DNA from: a virus
Lineage: Duplodnaviria > Heunggongvirae > Uroviricota > Caudoviricetes
IMG/VR virus record: IMGVR_UViG_2634166457_000006
Location: 1 to 20,300 of that record
DNA length: 20,300 bases
Direction: 5' to 3' (one strand)
Part shown: positions 2,012 to 10,992 of the stretch, piece by piece
Layout: each line of letters opens with the position of its first letter
How positions within the stretch are numbered: the stretch's first letter is position 1
The notes under the pieces: generated by a model
What the model saw: the letters and a program-made list of their open reading frames with translations, nothing else
Databases searched by the model: none
What the model was told of the DNA's origin: nothing
Program-made: the position numbers and the translations under genes

Positions 2012-2773
2012 ATGGAGACTGTTTTTGACGCACTGAAAGCAATGGGAAAAGCCACATCCATAGAACTTGCTGCGCGACTTGATATCAGTCGTGAAGAAGT
2101 GCTGAACGAACTATGGGAACTGAAAAAAGCTGGTTTTGTTGATAAAAGCGCGTACACCTGGCGTGTGGCTGATAACAACGTTCAGCAGGAACAGCCAATG
2201 CAGGCAGAACTGCCGGAAGAAACCACCACGGCAACAGTAGCGAAAATCTCAGAGTGCGATTTAACCGCGACGATTGAACAACGCGGACCACAAACGGCGG
2301 ATGAACTGGCTACGCTGTTCGGTACAACATCCCGCAAAGTTGCTTCAACGCTGGCAATGGCAATCAGCAAAGGACGCCTGATTCGCGTAAACCAGAACGG
2401 TAAATTTCGTTACTGCATACCGGGCGATAATTTACCAGCAGGGCCGAAAGCTGCATCGGTAACGGAAGCTAATGGTAAAGCCTTTCCTCAGCCAGCAGGT
2501 GTTGCGTTACCAGTACAGGAAGCTGCAACACAGGAAGATATTAAAACAGAAACTGTGGCTGATATAGTGCAATCGTTGCCATCGTTTACTGAAACGCGAG
2601 CGGATGACCTGGTTTTACCATCGCTGCATATGGCAAACCGCGAACTGCGTCGGGCGAAAAGTCATGTCCAGAAGTGGGAGCGTGTCTGCGCCGCGCTGCG
2701 GGAGCTGAACAAGCACCGGGATATTGTTCGACAGATTTTCGATTCCTCCAGTCGTATTGTGTCGGAAAAGTGA
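2012..2773 (+). CDS. Hypothetical phage protein, 253 aa, N-terminal winged-helix-like segment
   Basis: ATG 2012 with GGGAGAAAA SD; no function assigned beyond an N-terminal helix-turn-helix-like pattern. Confidence 0.5.
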
Positions 2774-2787
2774 TTGCCGGAGGCGCT

Positions 2788-3210
2788 ATGGCAAAAGTAT
2801 TTACACCAGAAGAGCGGGAAAAAATTAAAGGGCAGGTTGTTGAACTTGTACGTCTGAGCGGTCGCGAGACGTTACGGCAACTGGAAGCTAAAACAGGTGC
2901 GACAAGATATCTGATGAGTGTTCTCGCCAGAGAGCTGGTTGCCAGTGGCGATGTATACAACTCCGGCTACGGGTTATTCCCGTCTGAACAGGCGCGTAAG
3001 GACTGGCAAAACGCCCGCAAAAAACTCTCGAGGGCAAATCTGAAGAAACCATCTGTGGTTGATCCGGACCTTATCTGGTCATTACCAGACGGAGAAATAC
3101 GCCGCTACGACAGGCGTCAGAACATAATCTGTAGCGAGTGCCGGAAGAGCGAAGTTATGCAGCGCGTGCTGGCGTTTTATCAGGGGAATTTTCAGGAGGT
3201 GGTGCTGTGA
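2788..3210 (+). CDS. Hypothetical phage protein, 140 aa
   Basis: ATG 2788 with GGAGG SD 6 nt upstream; the ORF-track start 2674 overlaps the previous gene and lacks an SD. Confidence 0.5.
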   Translation: MAKVFTPEEREKIKGQVVELVRLSGRETLRQLEAKTGATRYLMSVLARELVASGDVYNSGYGLFPSEQARKDWQNARKKLSRANLKKPSVVDPDLIWSLPDGEIRRYDRRQNIICSECRKSEVMQRVLAFYQGNFQEVVL

Positions 3211-3267
3211 GTGAAATTAGCTATCAGGCTTCAATTACCGCTGGTATTCGCATCAAAGGAGAGGAGC

Positions 3268-3624
3268 ATGGAAATAAAACCAGAAGATGAGTTAAGTAAT
3301 ATTGTTTTATTTCCGGTAAAAGAGGATGACCCACGTAATCAGGTTAATTTTCTTTATGAGCCATCGGAAAGACCATATTGTCATCACGCCTCTGTCCGGG
3401 TTGACGAAAAAGAGCGTCAGGTCCGCTGTAAAATCTGCGGTGCAGTTGTGGAGCCGTTTGACTGGATGCTCTCAGTGGCGAAAAGAGAAACCAGACTGGC
3501 AGATGATGTAAGGTTGTTGCGCCAGGAGGAACAGGAAAGGCGGAAAAATATAGAAAAGTTAATTCAGATTGAGCGTAACGCGAAAGCGCGGATACGCAGG
3601 GCGACAAAACTTAGCCCCGAATAA
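3268..3624 (+). CDS. Hypothetical zinc-ribbon protein, 118 aa
   Basis: ATG 3268 with AAGGAGAGGAG SD; C..HH...CKICG motif. Alternative GTG start at 3211 with an AGGAGG SD about 11 nt upstream. Confidence 0.5.
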   Translation: MEIKPEDELSNIVLFPVKEDDPRNQVNFLYEPSERPYCHHASVRVDEKERQVRCKICGAVVEPFDWMLSVAKRETRLADDVRLLRQEEQERRKNIEKLIQIERNAKARIRRATKLSPE

Positions 3625-3714
3625 TCAACATTATTATCGGAAATAAAATCCTTAATCGGAGGGGTTTCTGCACCCTCAGAACATAAGGAGGCCGCCCGGC
3701 AGGACGGTAGTGAA

Positions 3715-3888
3715 ATGCGAAAATTTAAAATAATTATCGAGACGGGAATAGCTGGTGGCGATTTTGAGGACGTATTTGAAGTGGATGATGATGCGACACC
3801 AGATGAAATACAGGATGAAGCTAAAGATATTTTCTTTAACTACTGCAATTACTCATACCACGAAATAAAAGGCGAAGAGGAAGAATAA
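3715..3888 (+). CDS. Small highly acidic protein, 57 aa
   Basis: ATG 3715 to TAA 3886-3888; 18 of 57 residues are D/E with a poly-E C-terminus. Below the ORF-track cutoff, found by hand translation; SD is weak. Confidence 0.4.
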   Translation: MRKFKIIIETGIAGGDFEDVFEVDDDATPDEIQDEAKDIFFNYCNYSYHEIKGEEEE

Positions 3889-3889
3889 A

Positions 3890-4066
3890 ATGGCTGATTT
3901 TGGTTCAACTAAATATAACGTCAGTTTTGAAGAATGGCATGAATTGTTAATGGATTATGCAGAGTTACGCGGTGGAAGTGCTGCTGATGCTGAAGCATGG
4001 CGTGATGATTATGAAGCAGGAAAAACTCCGGTCGAAGCATATTGTGATGAGTGGGGCGATGAATGA
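3890..4066 (+). CDS. Small highly acidic protein, 58 aa
   Basis: ATG 3890 two nt after the previous stop; 16 of 58 residues are D/E; stop overlaps the next start (ATGA at 4063). Confidence 0.45.
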   Translation: MADFGSTKYNVSFEEWHELLMDYAELRGGSAADAEAWRDDYEAGKTPVEAYCDEWGDE

Positions 4067-4422
4067 GCAGGATGAATTATCAGGAAGTGCATGCAATTGC
4101 AGATCATGCAAAGCCAGTGGCATGGCGGTATCGCTACGTGAAAAAAGGCGTTACGGACTCTCAGGGTAAATCGTGGTTTGGTGACTGGAAATATGTACCG
4201 ACAAAAGAGGATTGCAACGACAGACCGAACTATGAAATTCAGGCGTTATTCACTGCCCCGCCTGTGCCACTGACACCAGAAGGATTGATTAAAGCAGTGC
4301 GCTTCTATGAACAGGTTAAGCGTGAAAATCCGCCAGTCGAAACCGGAGCATGGAAAGACGCTGTTGACTGGGTGCTCAAAGAGGCCTGCCAGGTTGTAAA
4401 CGCTGGCATCAAAGGAGACTGA
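4063..4422 (+). CDS. Hypothetical phage protein, 119 aa
   Basis: ORF in the packed operon with start overlapping the upstream stop. Confidence 0.55.
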   Translation: MSRMNYQEVHAIADHAKPVAWRYRYVKKGVTDSQGKSWFGDWKYVPTKEDCNDRPNYEIQALFTAPPVPLTPEGLIKAVRFYEQVKRENPPVETGAWKDAVDWVLKEACQVVNAGIKGD

Positions 4423-4423
4423 T

Positions 4424-4633
4424 ATGGCTATCGCTGCAAGTTACACCATGCATCTCTATTGTGACTGCCGCAAGTGTACGGAAGGTGTATATCCAGTGCC
4501 AGACTTCGGAGAGTATATCGGTACGTCATGGGCTGGTTGTGCAAAAGAGGCGCGTAAGGATGGCTGGCGAATAAGCAAAGACAAAACACGTGCTTTTGCG
4601 CCCGGGCATAAAGTTTTGAGGATTAACAAATGA
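4424..4633 (+). CDS. Hypothetical Cys-rich small protein, 69 aa
   Basis: ATG 4424 with AAAGGAGA SD; C-x-C-x2-C near the N-terminus plus a distal Cys suggests metal binding (inferred). Confidence 0.5.
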   Translation: MAIAASYTMHLYCDCRKCTEGVYPVPDFGEYIGTSWAGCAKEARKDGWRISKDKTRAFAPGHKVLRINK

Positions 4634-5211
4634 CCACTATTACCAGAGAAAACGCGGAAATTAAATCATTCATCACTGGTTTCCTGAGCGACCCGGCGCA
4701 CGATAACCAATCTTCAGACAGCCTGCTTGCCAATGTGTTTCGTATCGCACTGGCATCGCTGGAAGCAGAAGCGCCAAGTCTGCCTGGTGGATTTACAATT
4801 AAGGAAACACAAGAACTTTACGAAGATTTGGTTCGAAGCCACATAAGCCAGGCTTTAAGTGGTGAAAAGATGAAAAAGAAAGATCGCGAGGCTGATTTGC
4901 GCTGGATTCATGACGTAATAGTTCAGGCCGCGTGGTTTGTAAAAGCATCACTGGAGAAGAATGCACTATCGGGCACCCCTCCGGTAACTCCGGATGGCTG
5001 GATAAGCTGTAGTGAGCGAATGCCTGAAAAGGGTCAGAACGTGCTTATTTCGATGAATATCGATAGCGAGGCTGGGCCATTAATATATTCCGCACGCTAT
5101 CTCGGAGGCACGTTCCGGCGCGGAGGTATAGCAGTTAGTCCGGGTAATGATCTTGGGCAAGCAACCCACTGGATGCCGCTACCAGAACCGCCGCAGGAGG
5201 CGAATCAATGA
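4630..5211 (+). CDS. DUF551-like phage protein, 193 aa
   Basis: C-terminus ...ATHWMPLPEPP is the characteristic DUF551 end motif of enterobacterial prophage proteins; ATGA overlap with the upstream gene; GAGGA SD. Confidence 0.65.
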   Translation: MTTITRENAEIKSFITGFLSDPAHDNQSSDSLLANVFRIALASLEAEAPSLPGGFTIKETQELYEDLVRSHISQALSGEKMKKKDREADLRWIHDVIVQAAWFVKASLEKNALSGTPPVTPDGWISCSERMPEKGQNVLISMNIDSEAGPLIYSARYLGGTFRRGGIAVSPGNDLGQATHWMPLPEPPQEANQ

Positions 5212-5291
5212 CCTGGCCTGAAGCATTCACAACGGTAGGAATCGCACTGGCGGTGGCGCTGGTGGTGTATTCGATTTGCCGCTGGGGATAA
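5208..5291 (+). CDS. Putative 27-aa hydrophobic micro-protein
   Basis: ATG 5208 overlaps the upstream stop and is preceded by GCAGGAGG at 7-9 nt; product MTWPEAFTTVGIALAVALVVYSICRWG is one predicted transmembrane helix. Not in the ORF track (below cutoff). Confidence 0.3.
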   Translation: MTWPEAFTTVGIALAVALVVYSICRWG

Positions 5292-5297
5292 AAACGG

Positions 5298-5326
5298 TTT
5301 GCGGGAAAAGGAGAGTTAAGTAGAAT
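5298..5326 (+). promoter_or_regulatory. Candidate sigma70 promoter for the hok-type mRNA (-35 TTTGCG, 17-bp spacer, -10 TAGAAT)
   Basis: -10 TAGAAT at 5321-5326; the predicted transcript start falls at the GCGGGTGC element that is complementary to the mRNA 3' end. Confidence 0.4.
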
Positions 5327-5502
5327 TGCAGCGGGTGCTTGAGGCTATCTGTCTCAGGCATGAACACCAAAAGGCAGATAGAGAAAAGCCCCAGTTAACA
5401 TTACGCGTCCTGCAAGACGCTTAACATTAATCTGAGGCTCAATCTATGAACGGCAAATCTAGGTTAGCCTCTTACGTGCCGAAAGGCAAGGAGAAGCAGG
5501 CT

Positions 5503-5658
5503 ATGAAGCAGCAAAAGGCGATGTTAGTCGCCCTGATCGTCATCTGTATTACCGTCATTGTGACGGCACTGGTAACGAGGAAAGACCTCTGCGAGGTACG
5601 AATCCGAACCGGCCAGACGGAGGTCGCTGTCTTCGCAGCTTACGAACCTGAGAAGTAA
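5503..5658 (+). CDS. hok: Hok/Gef-family type I toxin, 51 aa
   Basis: MKQQKAMLVALIVICITVIVTALVTRKDLCEVRIRTGQTEVAVFAAYEPEK closely matches Hok/Gef as recalled (TRKxLCE..R.G..EVA.F.AYE). AAGGAG SD 9 nt upstream. An in-frame upstream ATG at 5446 with GAGG SD gives a mok-like 70-codon frame. Confidence 0.8.
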   Translation: MKQQKAMLVALIVICITVIVTALVTRKDLCEVRIRTGQTEVAVFAAYEPEK

Positions 5659-5749: not shown

Positions 5750-5867
5750 ACGTACTGTGGTTGTGAATACGATTGGTATTAGGATATGCTAACAACATTA
5801 GCTTGACTAATTTTGTATTGACTTGATTTTTGTTAAAGAACAGGACGGAGAAGTAAGGGGGCACCCA

Positions 5868-6047
5868 ATGAGCTACGCACTAAAAAAACACCCGCGATTG
5901 ACTATTCCCCCTCGCGATAAAAGCGTTGTGGCAGCTCCGCGCCCGGCTATCGATGAAAATTGCACTCATCGTGAGCAGGTGAAAAATGCTTTCGATTTCG
6001 GTTTTTCTCGTTACGAGAAGGCAATGGAAGAACTTTCAAAAGTGTAA
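5868..6047 (+). CDS. Putative antitoxin partner of the Doc-family toxin, 59 aa, not Phd-like
   Basis: ATG 5868 with TAAGGGGG SD; small ORF immediately upstream of, and nearly abutting, the Doc-family gene. Confidence 0.5.
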   Translation: MSYALKKHPRLTIPPRDKSVVAAPRPAIDENCTHREQVKNAFDFGFSRYEKAMEELSKV

Positions 6048-6065
6048 TGATGGGTATTGTGCTCT

Positions 6066-6551
6066 ATGGCTGAGATTGTTGAAGGAGTGCATTACCTTAC
6101 GGTTGATGATCTTGTTGAAATCAATCGTTCCCTAATTGAATTACAGACGCCAGATGAGCCCGTTGGTGTTCTGAGTCCAGATAACTTAAGTTCTTCTCAG
6201 GCCCGTCCCAGCATGGTTCGATGGTATGAACAGACTAATGACATGTTTGTACTGGCATCGGTATTGATTGAAAGTCTGATTCAGAATCATCCGTTTGCTA
6301 ATGCGAACAAACGAACAGCTATGATGGCTGGTTACGTCTTCTTGTTGTTGAATGGCTATGAGTTAACAGCACCAGGCGATGAAATCGTGGAAATGGCAGA
6401 GGGACTGGCCTGCAAAACCTATACTCGAGAAGATCTCGAGAACTGGTTGTGTTATTGGTCTCGCGCGTATGACAGCCGGGAATTATGTAAAACAGGCGCA
6501 ACTATTGTTTTGTATGAAACTATCAAGCTTAAAATAGAACAGCAAAACTAA
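6066..6551 (+). CDS. Doc (death-on-curing) family toxin, Fic/Doc fold
   Basis: HPFANANKRTA motif matches the Doc signature (P1 Doc HIFNDANKRTA) with similar flanking regions. ATG 6066 chosen; the ORF-track start 6057 is TTG. Confidence 0.75.
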   Translation: MAEIVEGVHYLTVDDLVEINRSLIELQTPDEPVGVLSPDNLSSSQARPSMVRWYEQTNDMFVLASVLIESLIQNHPFANANKRTAMMAGYVFLLLNGYELTAPGDEIVEMAEGLACKTYTREDLENWLCYWSRAYDSRELCKTGATIVLYETIKLKIEQQN

Positions 6552-6565
6552 AGGCGCTTCCAATG

Positions 6566-6595
6566 AAAACCCGCTTCGGCGGGTTTTTTGTTGTT
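6566..6595 (+). terminator. Rho-independent terminator
   Basis: AAAACCCGC-ttcg-GCGGGTTTT hairpin followed by a T-run. Confidence 0.7.
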
Positions 6596-6671
6596 TATTT
6601 TCGGTGAGTATGATGCATCTGGTTGTACTGATGTGGTTGGCTGATTCTGTTATTCAGGTGGCTTATTGCTG

Positions 6672-6699
6672 TTGATTGGTATGTCTTCACGGCTAGAAT
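6672..6699 (+). promoter_or_regulatory. Candidate sigma70 promoter (-35 TTGATT, 16-bp spacer, -10 TAGAAT)
   Basis: Hexamers at 6672-6677 and 6694-6699, positioned after the terminator and upstream of the gene at 6780. Confidence 0.4.
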
Positions 6700-6779
6700 C
6701 GAGGCTCTTAAGTAGCGCGCAGGGAGAAGAGGGATGGACCCCGAAGGGGAAGAGCTATTTATCTGGAAGGATTCTGAAG

Positions 6780-7040
6780 ATGAAAATCGAAGAATTGCGT
6801 GAAATTTTTAGTGGAAATGGCCTCTATGCTGTGCACGTTGAGAATGGCGCTATTGTCAGCCACTGCCGTATTAAATGTTTACAGTCTCAACAAAGGAAGA
6901 GTGGGGCTGCGTTAATTTACTTTGTGGATGGACTAGTGACGGATGGTTTTATTTTGCGTAAAAATGAATTTGTCACATCGTTGCCGTCTCTGAAAGAAGC
7001 TGGGATTAAGGCTGGTTTTTCTGCTTTTGAAGATGAGTGA
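6780..7040 (+). CDS. Hypothetical protein, 86 aa
   Basis: ATG 6780 with GGAAGG SD; the ORF-track start 6666 lies upstream of the predicted promoter. Confidence 0.45.
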   Translation: MKIEELREIFSGNGLYAVHVENGAIVSHCRIKCLQSQQRKSGAALIYFVDGLVTDGFILRKNEFVTSLPSLKEAGIKAGFSAFEDE

Positions 7041-7106
7041 ATTCATCTACAATTCAGCGCAGGGCTGAACCCCTGTTGAGTAACACTGTGCCACCGGAGA
7101 AAGCCG

Positions 7107-7385
7107 ATGGCGCAAAATTCCAGACTACACAATTCTGATAATTCAGCCGTCTTTGCCAGCAGGCACGGGCGGCGTACTCACGCATTCAAATATGACTGGT
7201 ATCAGCACGATCCCTGCACTGAAGAACAGGCCGAATGGCTGATTCATAACTACCGCAGACGTGGGTATGAGTTTAGGAAAGCCCTCAGTCTGGATTATCG
7301 TCACTGGATAATCTCCGTCAGGCTTCCTTACTCCGAACGCCCACCGCGTCCGTCCCGCACATTCCAGCAACGGATCTGGAGGTAA
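7107..7385 (+). CDS. Hypothetical protein, 92 aa, basic
   Basis: ATG 7107 with GGAGAAAG SD; function unknown. Confidence 0.5.
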   Translation: MAQNSRLHNSDNSAVFASRHGRRTHAFKYDWYQHDPCTEEQAEWLIHNYRRRGYEFRKALSLDYRHWIISVRLPYSERPPRPSRTFQQRIWR

Positions 7386-8445: not shown

Positions 8446-8826
8446 ATGACTGAACGCATAGAATTTGTTTTGCCTTACCCGCCCACGGTGAACACCTACT
8501 GGCGACGTCGTGGCAGCACATATTTTGTATCAAAAGTCGGTGAGCGTTATCGCCGTGATGTGGCGCTAATTGTTCGCCAGCAGCGACTGAAATTAAGCCT
8601 GTCCGGAAGGCTGGCGATAAAGATTGTTGCAGAGCCGCCGGATAAGCGCCGTCGCGACCTGGATAATATCCTGAAAGCACCTCTGGATGCGCTGACGCAT
8701 GCGGGACTGCTTATCGACGACGAGCAGTTTGATGAAATTAATATTGTGCGCGGTCAGCCTGTATCTGGTGGACGGCTGGGCGTGAAGATTTACCAGATAA
8801 TGCATGAAGGGCAGGCTAAAAAATGA
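8446..8826 (+). CDS. rusA: Holliday-junction resolvase RusA
   Basis: RRRDLDNILKAPLDALTHAGLLIDDEQ...GGRL matches the RusA signature (E. coli RusA [25 protein letters not shown]). Confidence 0.85.
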   Translation: MTERIEFVLPYPPTVNTYWRRRGSTYFVSKVGERYRRDVALIVRQQRLKLSLSGRLAIKIVAEPPDKRRRDLDNILKAPLDALTHAGLLIDDEQFDEINIVRGQPVSGGRLGVKIYQIMHEGQAKK

Positions 8827-9644
8827 AACTGGAAGATTTACCGAAATACTACTCCCCAAAATCCCCCGGCCTGACTGATGCATCTGCCTCAACGTCAAAA
8901 GATGCGCTGAGTATCACTGATGTGATGGCAGCACAGGGCATGACACAGAATCGGGCTGAGATGGGGTTTTCTGCGTTCCTTGGGAAAATGGGCATCAGTA
9001 TGAATGACAGAGAGCGGGCAACAGAACTGCTGACAGAATATGCTCTCTGTCGGTGTGATGGCGTGGCGGCGTTAAGAAAACTTCCGGCAGAAATAAAACC
9101 GGTAGTGATGCGCATTATGGCTTCGTATGCTTTTGAGGATTATGCCCGGAGCGCGGCGAGCAAAAAACAGTGCCCATGCTGTCGCGGAAAAAAATTTATT
9201 GAAAGTGAGGTTTTTACAAACAAGGTGCAGTATCCGGATGGTAAGCCGCCAGTATGGGCAAAGTGTACAAAAGGCGTGTATCCGTCTTACTGGGAAGAAT
9301 GGAAAAAATTCAGGGAGGTGGTAAAAGTTGTCTGTCCGGAGTGTGGAGGGAAGGGAGATGTATCCGCCGCCTGTAAAGATTGTCGTGGGCGTGGCGTCGC
9401 CATTCATCGTGAAGAGTCGGAAAAACAGGGCGTGCCGGTTTTCAGAAACTGCCAGCGTTGTGGTGGACGTGGTTACGAAAGATTACCGTCAACGAAGGCA
9501 TTCAATGCCATATGTAATGTAACCTGCGCCATTTCTCTTGATGCATGGAAAAAAACGGTTAAACGTTTTTACGATACGCTGGTGGTGCAGTTTGATATTG
9601 AAGAGGCATGGGCAGAGCAACAGCTGAAGAGGGTGACCCGATAG
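8823..9644 (+). CDS. Q: Late-gene antiterminator Q (long type with Cys-rich zinc-binding region)
   Basis: Position after rusA and before a pR'-like promoter and tRNAs; multiple CxxC pairs; ATGA overlap with rusA. Confidence 0.7.
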   Translation: MKLEDLPKYYSPKSPGLTDASASTSKDALSITDVMAAQGMTQNRAEMGFSAFLGKMGISMNDRERATELLTEYALCRCDGVAALRKLPAEIKPVVMRIMASYAFEDYARSAASKKQCPCCRGKKFIESEVFTNKVQYPDGKPPVWAKCTKGVYPSYWEEWKKFREVVKVVCPECGGKGDVSAACKDCRGRGVAIHREESEKQGVPVFRNCQRCGGRGYERLPSTKAFNAICNVTCAISLDAWKKTVKRFYDTLVVQFDIEEAWAEQQLKRVTR

Positions 9645-9786: not shown

Positions 9787-9862
9787 GGCCCTTTAGCTCA
9801 GTGGTGAGAGCGAGCGACTCATAATCGCCAGGTCGCTGGTTCAAATCCAGCAAGGGCCACCA
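9787..9862 (+). tRNA. tRNA with CAT anticodon (Met or lysidine-type Ile2)
   Basis: Manual cloverleaf: acceptor GGCCCTT/AAGGGCC, anticodon loop CTCATAA, T-loop TTCAAAT, encoded CCA. Confidence 0.85.
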
Positions 9863-9867
9863 CCTTA

Positions 9868-9944
9868 CCGCCATTAGCTCATCAGGACAGAGCGCCAGCC
9901 TTCGAAGCTGGCTGCGCGGGGTTCGGGTCCCCGGTGGCGGTCCA
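9868..9944 (+). tRNA. tRNA-Arg (anticodon TCG)
   Basis: Manual cloverleaf: acceptor CCGCCAT/GTGGCGG, anticodon stem CCAGC/GCTGG, loop CTTCGAA, T-loop TTCGGGT, encoded CCA. Confidence 0.75.
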
Positions 9945-9957
9945 TAACCGACACCCT

Positions 9958-10034
9958 GCGTTGTCAGCTCAGCCGGACAGAGCAATTGCCTTCTGAGCAA
10001 TCGGTCACTGGTTCGAATCCAGTACGACGCGCCA
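9958..10034 (+). tRNA. tRNA-Arg (anticodon TCT, reads AGA/AGG)
   Basis: Manual cloverleaf: acceptor GCGTTGT/ACGACGC, anticodon stem ATTGC/GCAAT, loop CTTCTGA, T-loop TTCGAAT, encoded CCA. Confidence 0.85.
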
Positions 10035-10778: not shown

Positions 10779-10992
10779 ATAATGCTTGATTTTTTTATTT
10801 GCTGTTTATTAAAAATACTGCTGCATGGTGAATCCCCCTGAGCGGAGGGGCAATCAGCAAGAAGGAATATGGGATAATCGCGGATTCAGGTGCTGATACT
10901 GAATTCACCGGGAGGCACCCGGCACCATGCACTGCCACAAAAGTGTTATTTCTGTTTTTTCTCAGGCTATCATTGTTATCCCTTTATTTCCG

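Follow-up and report, generated by a model that had tools for sequence, protein, structure and literature searches.

Two adjacent small genes in the early region of a lambdoid prophage, here named orfA and orfB, were found to be genuine, conserved and separately evolved protein genes with strongly acidic products. The window, i.e. the whole stretch of 20,300 nucleotides that was analysed, belonged to a Rac/Qin-like enterobacterial prophage that matched E. coli prophages in pieces at about 92% identity. We tentatively propose, with a probability of roughly 40%, that the two proteins are independent, stand-alone polyanionic competitive inhibitors, each directed at a nucleic-acid-binding protein of the host, which would most likely be a complex for defence or DNA processing. 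That they serve as DNA mimics or in anti-defence was plausible but unproven, and the two genes should be regarded as sensible candidates rather than as a discovery.

The orfA gene (3715-3888, plus strand, ATG to TAA) encoded 57 amino acids, including 8 Asp and 10 Glu residues (31.6%), with a net charge of -13 and a computed pI of 4.05. The orfB gene (3890-4066, plus strand, ATG to TGA) encoded 58 amino acids with 7 Asp and 9 Glu residues (27.6%), a net charge of -12 and the same computed pI of 4.05. These coordinates, sizes, acidic contents and charges agreed with a preliminary description of this DNA, as did the poly-Glu tail reported there, since the orfA product terminated in GEEEE. Among the 99 six-frame ORFs of 45-100 amino acids in the window, only orfA and orfB had an Asp/Glu content of at least 25%, and the mean content over all 141 window ORFs of at least 45 amino acids was 6.7%.

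Both lengths were under the usual ORF cut-offs and the Shine-Dalgarno sequence of orfA was weak (AGGA, 10 nt ahead of the ATG), which could suggest chance ORFs or decaying remnants without a function. The conservation data refuted this explanation, and we consider it practically untenable. Namely, all 26 distinct orfA alleles and all 30 distinct orfB alleles from related loci were intact. The variable sites at the first, second and third codon positions numbered 14, 16 and 40 in orfA and 10, 11 and 22 in orfB, and the pooled pN/pS was 0.07 and 0.05, respectively, indicating strong purifying selection. Moreover, both proteins matched curated or clustered families, had relatives (40-60% identity) in further genera and types of element, and yielded confident structure predictions. 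In E. coli they corresponded to the RefSeq entries WP_001224665 ('DUF7167 family protein', orfA) and WP_000753053 ('hypothetical protein', orfB).

All the major genes around this locus were on the plus strand. A YdaT-like gene and the DnaT-like and P replication genes (replication genes at 409-1978) preceded DUF1627, and the genes for DUF1627, DUF977 and a 137-aa zinc-ribbon protein (3211-3624) were located between the replication genes and orfA. On the other side, orfB was followed by orfC (4063-4422, phrog_660), orfD (4424-4633, encoding a Cys-rich, basic protein of 69 aa from phrog_926) and a DUF551 gene (4630-5211). After them came hok/sok, a Fic/Doc gene, DUF968, RusA and the antiterminator Q (8823-9644), in that order, with tRNAs, lysis genes, terminase and capsid genes downstream of Q. 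Since orfA and orfB were on the plus strand between the replication genes and Q, they were assigned to the delayed-early, nin-like segment of a pR-type operon, in line with the early region proposed for them earlier. The genes were tightly packed: the ATG of orfB was 1 nt past the orfA stop, and the orfB stop and the orfC start shared an ATGA (4063-4066, plus strand, from the sequence and the ORF list). This overlap indicated translational coupling within a packed polycistron where orfC, orfD and the DUF551 gene came next. The orfA and orfB genes were co-transcribed in the replication-to-Q operon and translationally coupled to their neighbours.

The two genes were preceded by a conserved 5' leader (3641-3714, plus strand), which began at an upstream mosaic junction near 3641. 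In a megablast search with a query starting at 3600, the matches to about 1,900 E. coli genomes and to phages began at query base 42, i.e. at position 3641. The leader was also considered as a possible location of a separate promoter, a terminator or a structured RNA, with no significant result: RNA folding of 3620-3720 was unremarkable (z -1.9), and a search of the leader for promoter-like or terminator-like sites on the plus strand found none. The slot itself was hypervariable, and in a related O55:H7-type prophage it contained paa and a fimbrial pseudogene instead. In the comparison with a related E. coli prophage in NZ_CP027552.1 (our locus L099, 2742-4700), the segment between DUF1627 and hok (window positions ~2773-5300) was replaced by the gene for the adhesin paa together with a fimbrial pseudogene. 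This replacement identified the interval as a cargo hotspot.

The orfA protein was a member of the Pfam family DUF7167 (PF23768), with a score of 51.7 bits (cut-off 24.4) and with residues 2-52 aligned to profile positions 1-59 of 60. It also matched phrog_1997 over its entire length (E 4.6e-30, residues 1-57 of 57). Relatives with identity down to about 45% were present in Klebsiella, Citrobacter, Yersinia, Pseudomonas and metagenomic phages, and a profile scan of genome contigs for DUF7167 produced 3 loci. The median charge of the family was -13 (range -16 to -6). In its alignment, at least 80% of the sequences had an acidic residue at each of 11 positions. An AlphaFold2 model based on a 47-sequence alignment (pLDDT 88.9) consisted of a beta-hairpin (2-8/17-23), a helix (29-43) and the acidic tail. 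In the helix, three of the 11 acidic positions (31, 35 and 38) were on one face, and the conserved hydrophobic residues I32, A36 and F40 were on the opposite one. Judging by the sequence and the predicted secondary structure, the conserved carboxylates of orfA may form an exposed stripe.

The codons of the poly-Glu tail (GAA GAG GAA GAA, 3874-3885, plus strand) included the GAGGA that constituted the Shine-Dalgarno sequence of orfB, and in E. coli relatives orfA was 3 codons longer and overlapped orfB by 8 nt. The idea that the tail was purely a by-product of this ribosome-binding signal was ruled out, since acidic tails were retained in DUF7167 members without orfB downstream. The literature that we searched contained no mention of DUF7167, of phrog_1997 or of the RefSeq accessions of the two proteins. 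DUF7167 was an uncharacterised family of mobile-element proteins with a conserved strong negative charge.

The orfB protein had no Pfam or NCBIfam family, and Pfam was also blank for 31 of its relatives. It belonged to phrog_519 (E 4.5e-23), with residues 1-58 aligned to profile positions 76-137 of 143; this cluster comprised 261 phage proteins, and its profile was inflated by longer members. An exhaustive HMMER search of 1.84 billion cluster representatives found 65 of these at E of 0.001 or below, nearly all of them proteins of 50-65 aa. Matches to proteins of 855-6207 aa in this search were set aside, the two that were inspected (P0215 and P0228) being compositional and due to Listeria-Bacteroides-type repeats. 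The family consensus was FEEW..L..A..GGS..D..AWR.DYD.G.TP.EAW.DEW, and the AlphaFold2 model (pLDDT 87.7) was a three-helix bundle (13-27, 34-42 and 47-55). The median charge was -10 (range -15 to -4), with only five positions acidic in at least 80% of the members, and the near-invariant residues were aromatic or structural (F13, W16, W37, Y41, G44 and P47). The orfB family was also an uncharacterised mobile-element family, in which the net negative charge itself was conserved. The only reference to phrog_519 in the literature searched was a computational prediction, where PaCRISPR flagged Kuttervirus proteins of this cluster as possible anti-CRISPRs (PMC9409062).

Relatives of orfB were found in 198 phage records, mostly from virulent Ackermannviridae (Kuttervirus, Taipeivirus) and also from a KP34-like podovirus. 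In the podovirus phiKDA1 the gene was located between the DNA polymerase and the 5'-3' exonuclease. In P2-like prophages it was found directly after gpA, beside or after Dam/Dcm methyltransferases. In four such loci (L107-L110, 5001-5162) the orfB relative was right behind the replication gene gpA and was separated from the portal gene by a short variable segment. This position would correspond to the known accessory and defence hotspot of P2. Relatives of both families were also located after O/P-like and Ead/Ea22-like genes and beside RecT/exonuclease genes.

Plasmids were the other major location of orfB relatives: 554 of them had such a gene and 516 of these were typed as conjugative. A homolog with 80-90% identity was present in 412 plasmids, many of about 60 kb, one of which was inspected. 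This was the IncI2 plasmid NZ_CP011294.1, where an 88%-identical homolog (27535-27711; L102, 9001-9177) was part of an operon that comprised a CaiF/GrlA-type regulator, DUF1187, the orfB homolog, SPFH, NfeD and T4SS genes, in that order. The plasmid homologs pointed to a recent exchange between lambdoid prophages and plasmids. It has been proposed that anti-defence genes of the leading region are encoded on the T-strand and belong to roughly the first 30 ORFs on the leading side of oriT (PMC11541004). In NZ_CP011294.1 the distance from the mobC-relaxase/TraL junction (presumed oriT) to the orfB homolog was about 15 kb, or about 22 annotated ORFs, and many of the intervening genes were on the other strand. 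In an IncT plasmid it was 8 kb past mobI, among small genes arrayed in the same orientation. The orfB homolog was not found in the supplements of the cited study under the terms tried.

The preliminary description had presented orfA and orfB as a tandem. The adjacency was confirmed, whereas any relatedness was not: hhalign gave a probability of 0.2% for the two proteins and their predicted folds were unlike each other, ruling out a tandem duplication. The next question was if they formed an obligate two-protein complex or system that is active only when both are present. In all 83 loci that were at least 93% identical, from IMG/VR, E. coli and the Stx phage ArgO145, orfB was directly downstream of orfA and in the same orientation, despite at least 10 upstream and at least 8 downstream sequence types flanking the two-gene cassette. 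The cassette DNA was present in 1,908 of the 5,426 complete E. coli genomes (~35%), with 80-99% and mostly 90-95% identity, and occurred in two operon types, namely the nin-like one of the window and a pL exo-xis-like one beside Ea22-like genes in ArgO145. Moreover, in the distant genome CP072455.1 (L115, GCA_017743015.1) a divergent DUF7167 gene (32 bits) began 10 nt after an orfB-family gene, so that the two were adjacent again but in the reversed order.

However, most of the distant relatives were found as single genes. Seven distant DUF7167 contexts (Klebsiella, three from Citrobacter, Yersinia, Pseudomonas and metagenomic phages) had no orfB relative within 4 kb, and DUF7167 was absent near the orfB relatives of Enterobacter prophages, P2-like prophages, Ackermannviridae, phiKDA1 and plasmids. 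The record counts were also unequal, with 17 phage and 15 plasmid records for orfA against 198 and 554 for orfB, and mutual binding was disfavoured since both proteins were strong polyanions. These single-gene contexts argued against an obligate pair, which we consider improbable and retain as a minor alternative because of the renewed pairing in L115. Thus, we concluded that orfA and orfB were two independent accessory genes that were sometimes deployed together, and that their adjacency in E. coli reflected a cassette rather than an obligate two-subunit system.

Two further observations concerned the mobility of these genes. In Klebsiella, a homolog of orfD (L085, 4172-4384) was located directly after a DUF7167 gene, with orfB and orfC missing, which showed that the small genes were mosaic module by module. 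Additionally, the Actinobacillus phage vB_Apl-pPE4 (PP818812.1, 11345-11791), whose recorded host was Actinobacillus pleuropneumoniae, contained the cassette with 93% nucleotide identity, so that its host may have been assigned wrongly or an E. coli prophage may have contaminated the record.

The composition of both proteins was typical of DNA mimics, which are small and have a pI of ~3-5 and a high Asp/Glu content, and this trait was conserved in both families. Small size and acidity have been described as the hallmarks of DNA mimics, whose folds are diverse (PMC9836394), and DNA mimics have been recognised as a broad-spectrum anti-defence class (bioRxiv 10.1101/2025.06.06.658234). We therefore agree with the preliminary description that the two genes are reasonable DNA-mimic anti-defence candidates, but the family analogies it had drawn with Ocr, ArdA and anti-CRISPRs were not borne out by any sequence or fold match. 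Namely, the only Pfam match at E up to 0.1, Ocr and ArdA included, was DUF7167 for orfA. No PDB chain was matched by either protein at E up to 10, with single sequences (phmmer) or with family profiles (hmmsearch), in a search that covered every solved DNA mimic and anti-CRISPR. NCBIfam and PADLOC were likewise negative for such homologs; PADLOC had no match for orfA, orfB, orfC, orfD or DUF551, and only a non-significant one (E 0.039) for the upstream 137-aa protein. There was no aca-type HTH gene next to orfA and orfB, with orfC and orfD lacking HTH or other Pfam domains, and both families and their accessions were absent from the EVADES supplementary tables. Structure prediction, which had been suggested as a check, produced confident models, but their folds matched neither Ocr or ArdA nor any anti-CRISPR or solved DNA mimic.

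The T7 protein Ocr (~116 aa) and the ArdA proteins of plasmids and transposons (~166 aa) form elongated dimers whose shape resembles bent DNA of ~24-42 bp. Similar to them, orfA and orfB were acidic, and Ocr (gp0.3) and ArdA are expressed on entry of a mobile element and occur on phages and conjugative plasmids, as orfB relatives do. In contrast, orfA and orfB were half the length of Ocr or shorter, their genes were delayed-early while those of Ocr and ArdA are the first to enter, and they did not fit the elongated dimeric fold with carboxylates arranged along a DNA-like path. Since no sequence, profile or fold match was found, we rejected membership in the Ocr or ArdA families. That either protein is one of these, or a known anti-CRISPR, was very improbable, with composition, size and the PaCRISPR flag on the Kuttervirus proteins (PMC9409062) as the points in its favour. 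The lack of matches did not refute mimicry as such because natural DNA mimics are structurally diverse.

A closer parallel was the T7 protein gp5.9, an inhibitor of RecBCD and MukBEF that, like orfA and orfB, is very small (52 vs 57-58 aa), has a pI of about 4 and is early and stand-alone (PMC9836394; PMC7617805). It has been reported as a coiled-coil dimer of 52 aa with a pI of 4.0 and as a DNA mimic whose fold had no precedent among mimics (PMC9836394). It follows from this example that a protein of this size can mimic DNA once dimerised and that a shared fold is unnecessary. The gp5.9 dimer is a parallel coiled coil, while the predicted structures were a beta-hairpin with one helix for orfA and a compact three-helix bundle for orfB. 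Another point of comparison was the genomic niche. The nin and exo-xis regions of lambdoid phages carry small accessory genes such as lambda Ral, Gam and those for Ea22/orf61/orf63-type proteins. The cassette was found in the same niche with the same mosaic behaviour, i.e. nin-like in the window or exo-xis-like near Ea22-like genes in ArgO145, as was the orfB relative in Enterobacter prophages. No homology to Ral, Gam or Ea22/orf61/orf63-type proteins was detected in Pfam, NCBIfam and PHROG searches.

We hypothesized that each protein would be produced shortly after infection or induction and would act alone as a stoichiometric polyanionic decoy. Such a decoy would fill the basic surface through which a host protein binds nucleic acids and compete there with DNA or RNA, which would be nucleic-acid mimicry in a broad sense, comparable to that of T7 gp5.9 on RecBCD. 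The likeliest targets would be defence or DNA-processing proteins, for example restriction or BREX-type complexes, RecBCD or SMC-like complexes. With 57-58 residues, each protein would probably mimic no more than a short piece of duplex unless it formed an oligomer. Several observations were consistent with inhibition of a host protein. The charge conserved in both families (medians of -13 and -10) implied that acidity was selected rather than incidental, and the exchange of the slot in the O55:H7-type prophage together with the diversity of cassette flanks was the behaviour of an accessory slot. In the distant genome L115, a co-directional early operon of a prophage encoded a Gad1 anti-Gabija homolog (PF25705, 203 bits), the orfB and DUF7167 pair, and Dam (971-1945, 5001-5360 and 6574-7113). 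The spread over unrelated elements with common Enterobacterales hosts, together with such counter-defence neighbours, would be expected of a host-directed inhibitor, although this evidence was circumstantial.

The main alternative was that orfA and orfB modulate host or phage physiology outside defence, tuning replication, recombination or the lysis-lysogeny decision. They could, for example, be small acidic proteins that bind to nucleoid-associated proteins, RNA polymerase, replication or recombination factors, or the phage's own DNA-binding proteins. The frequent location of relatives among replication and recombination genes (O/P-like, Ead/Ea22-like, RecT/exonuclease, the phiKDA1 polymerase and exonuclease, and gpA) was in agreement with this explanation, as was the IncI2 homolog in an operon that was headed by a CaiF/GrlA-type regulator and ran into transfer genes. 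On the other hand, there was no constant neighbour or partner gene over the contexts examined, and relatives occurred in plasmids as well as in temperate and virulent phages, elements that replicate in very different ways, which argued against a partner encoded by the element. We consider such a modulator role somewhat unlikely, albeit a serious contender to the competitive inhibition of a host complex proposed above.

A more specific version of the inhibitor proposal was that the orfB family is a broad-host nucleic-acid mimic with a new fold, directed against a defence or DNA-processing complex common in Enterobacterales and used by temperate phages, P2-like phages and virulent Ackermannviridae as well as by conjugative plasmids, including the IncI2 backbone. 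DUF7167 would then be another mimic with its own new fold, independent of orfB but at times deployed with it to broaden the coverage. In this specific form the proposal is speculative and rather doubtful.

Small acidic proteins without an assigned role in the accessory region of a lambdoid phage would not surprise a specialist, but orfA and orfB were very common and are easily tested. The cassette was present in about 35% of complete E. coli genomes, close orfB relatives were part of the backbone of an IncI2 conjugative plasmid, and more distant ones occurred in Kuttervirus and in Klebsiella Ackermannviridae, i.e. in phages under consideration for therapy. Should one of the two proteins inactivate a complex for defence or DNA repair, the few natural DNA mimics described so far would be joined by one with a new fold. 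Such a protein would also represent a counter-defence common to phages and resistance plasmids, and a compact tool to inhibit its target. If not, orfA and orfB would merely extend the many small accessory genes of unknown role for which this region is known.

Several other features were found elsewhere in the window. A complete hok/sok type I toxin-antitoxin system was present, where the sok RNA (5333-5508, Rfam RF01794, 112 bits) overlapped a Hok-family ORF (5446-5658), an arrangement like that of hokD in related E. coli prophages. Downstream of it, a Fic/Doc-family protein (6057-6551, Pfam Fic, 46.5 bits) was preceded by an ORF of 74 aa (5823-6047) that had no Pfam match, and the two (5823-6551) may represent a Phd/Doc-like toxin-antitoxin pair in the nin-like region. 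Finally, three tRNA genes (Met-CAT, Arg-TCG and Arg-TCT) were located just downstream of Q, and beyond them the sRNA family STnc100 was matched (106 bits; 9787-10034 and 10797-10981), an order that resembled the region downstream of Q in Stx-type prophages.
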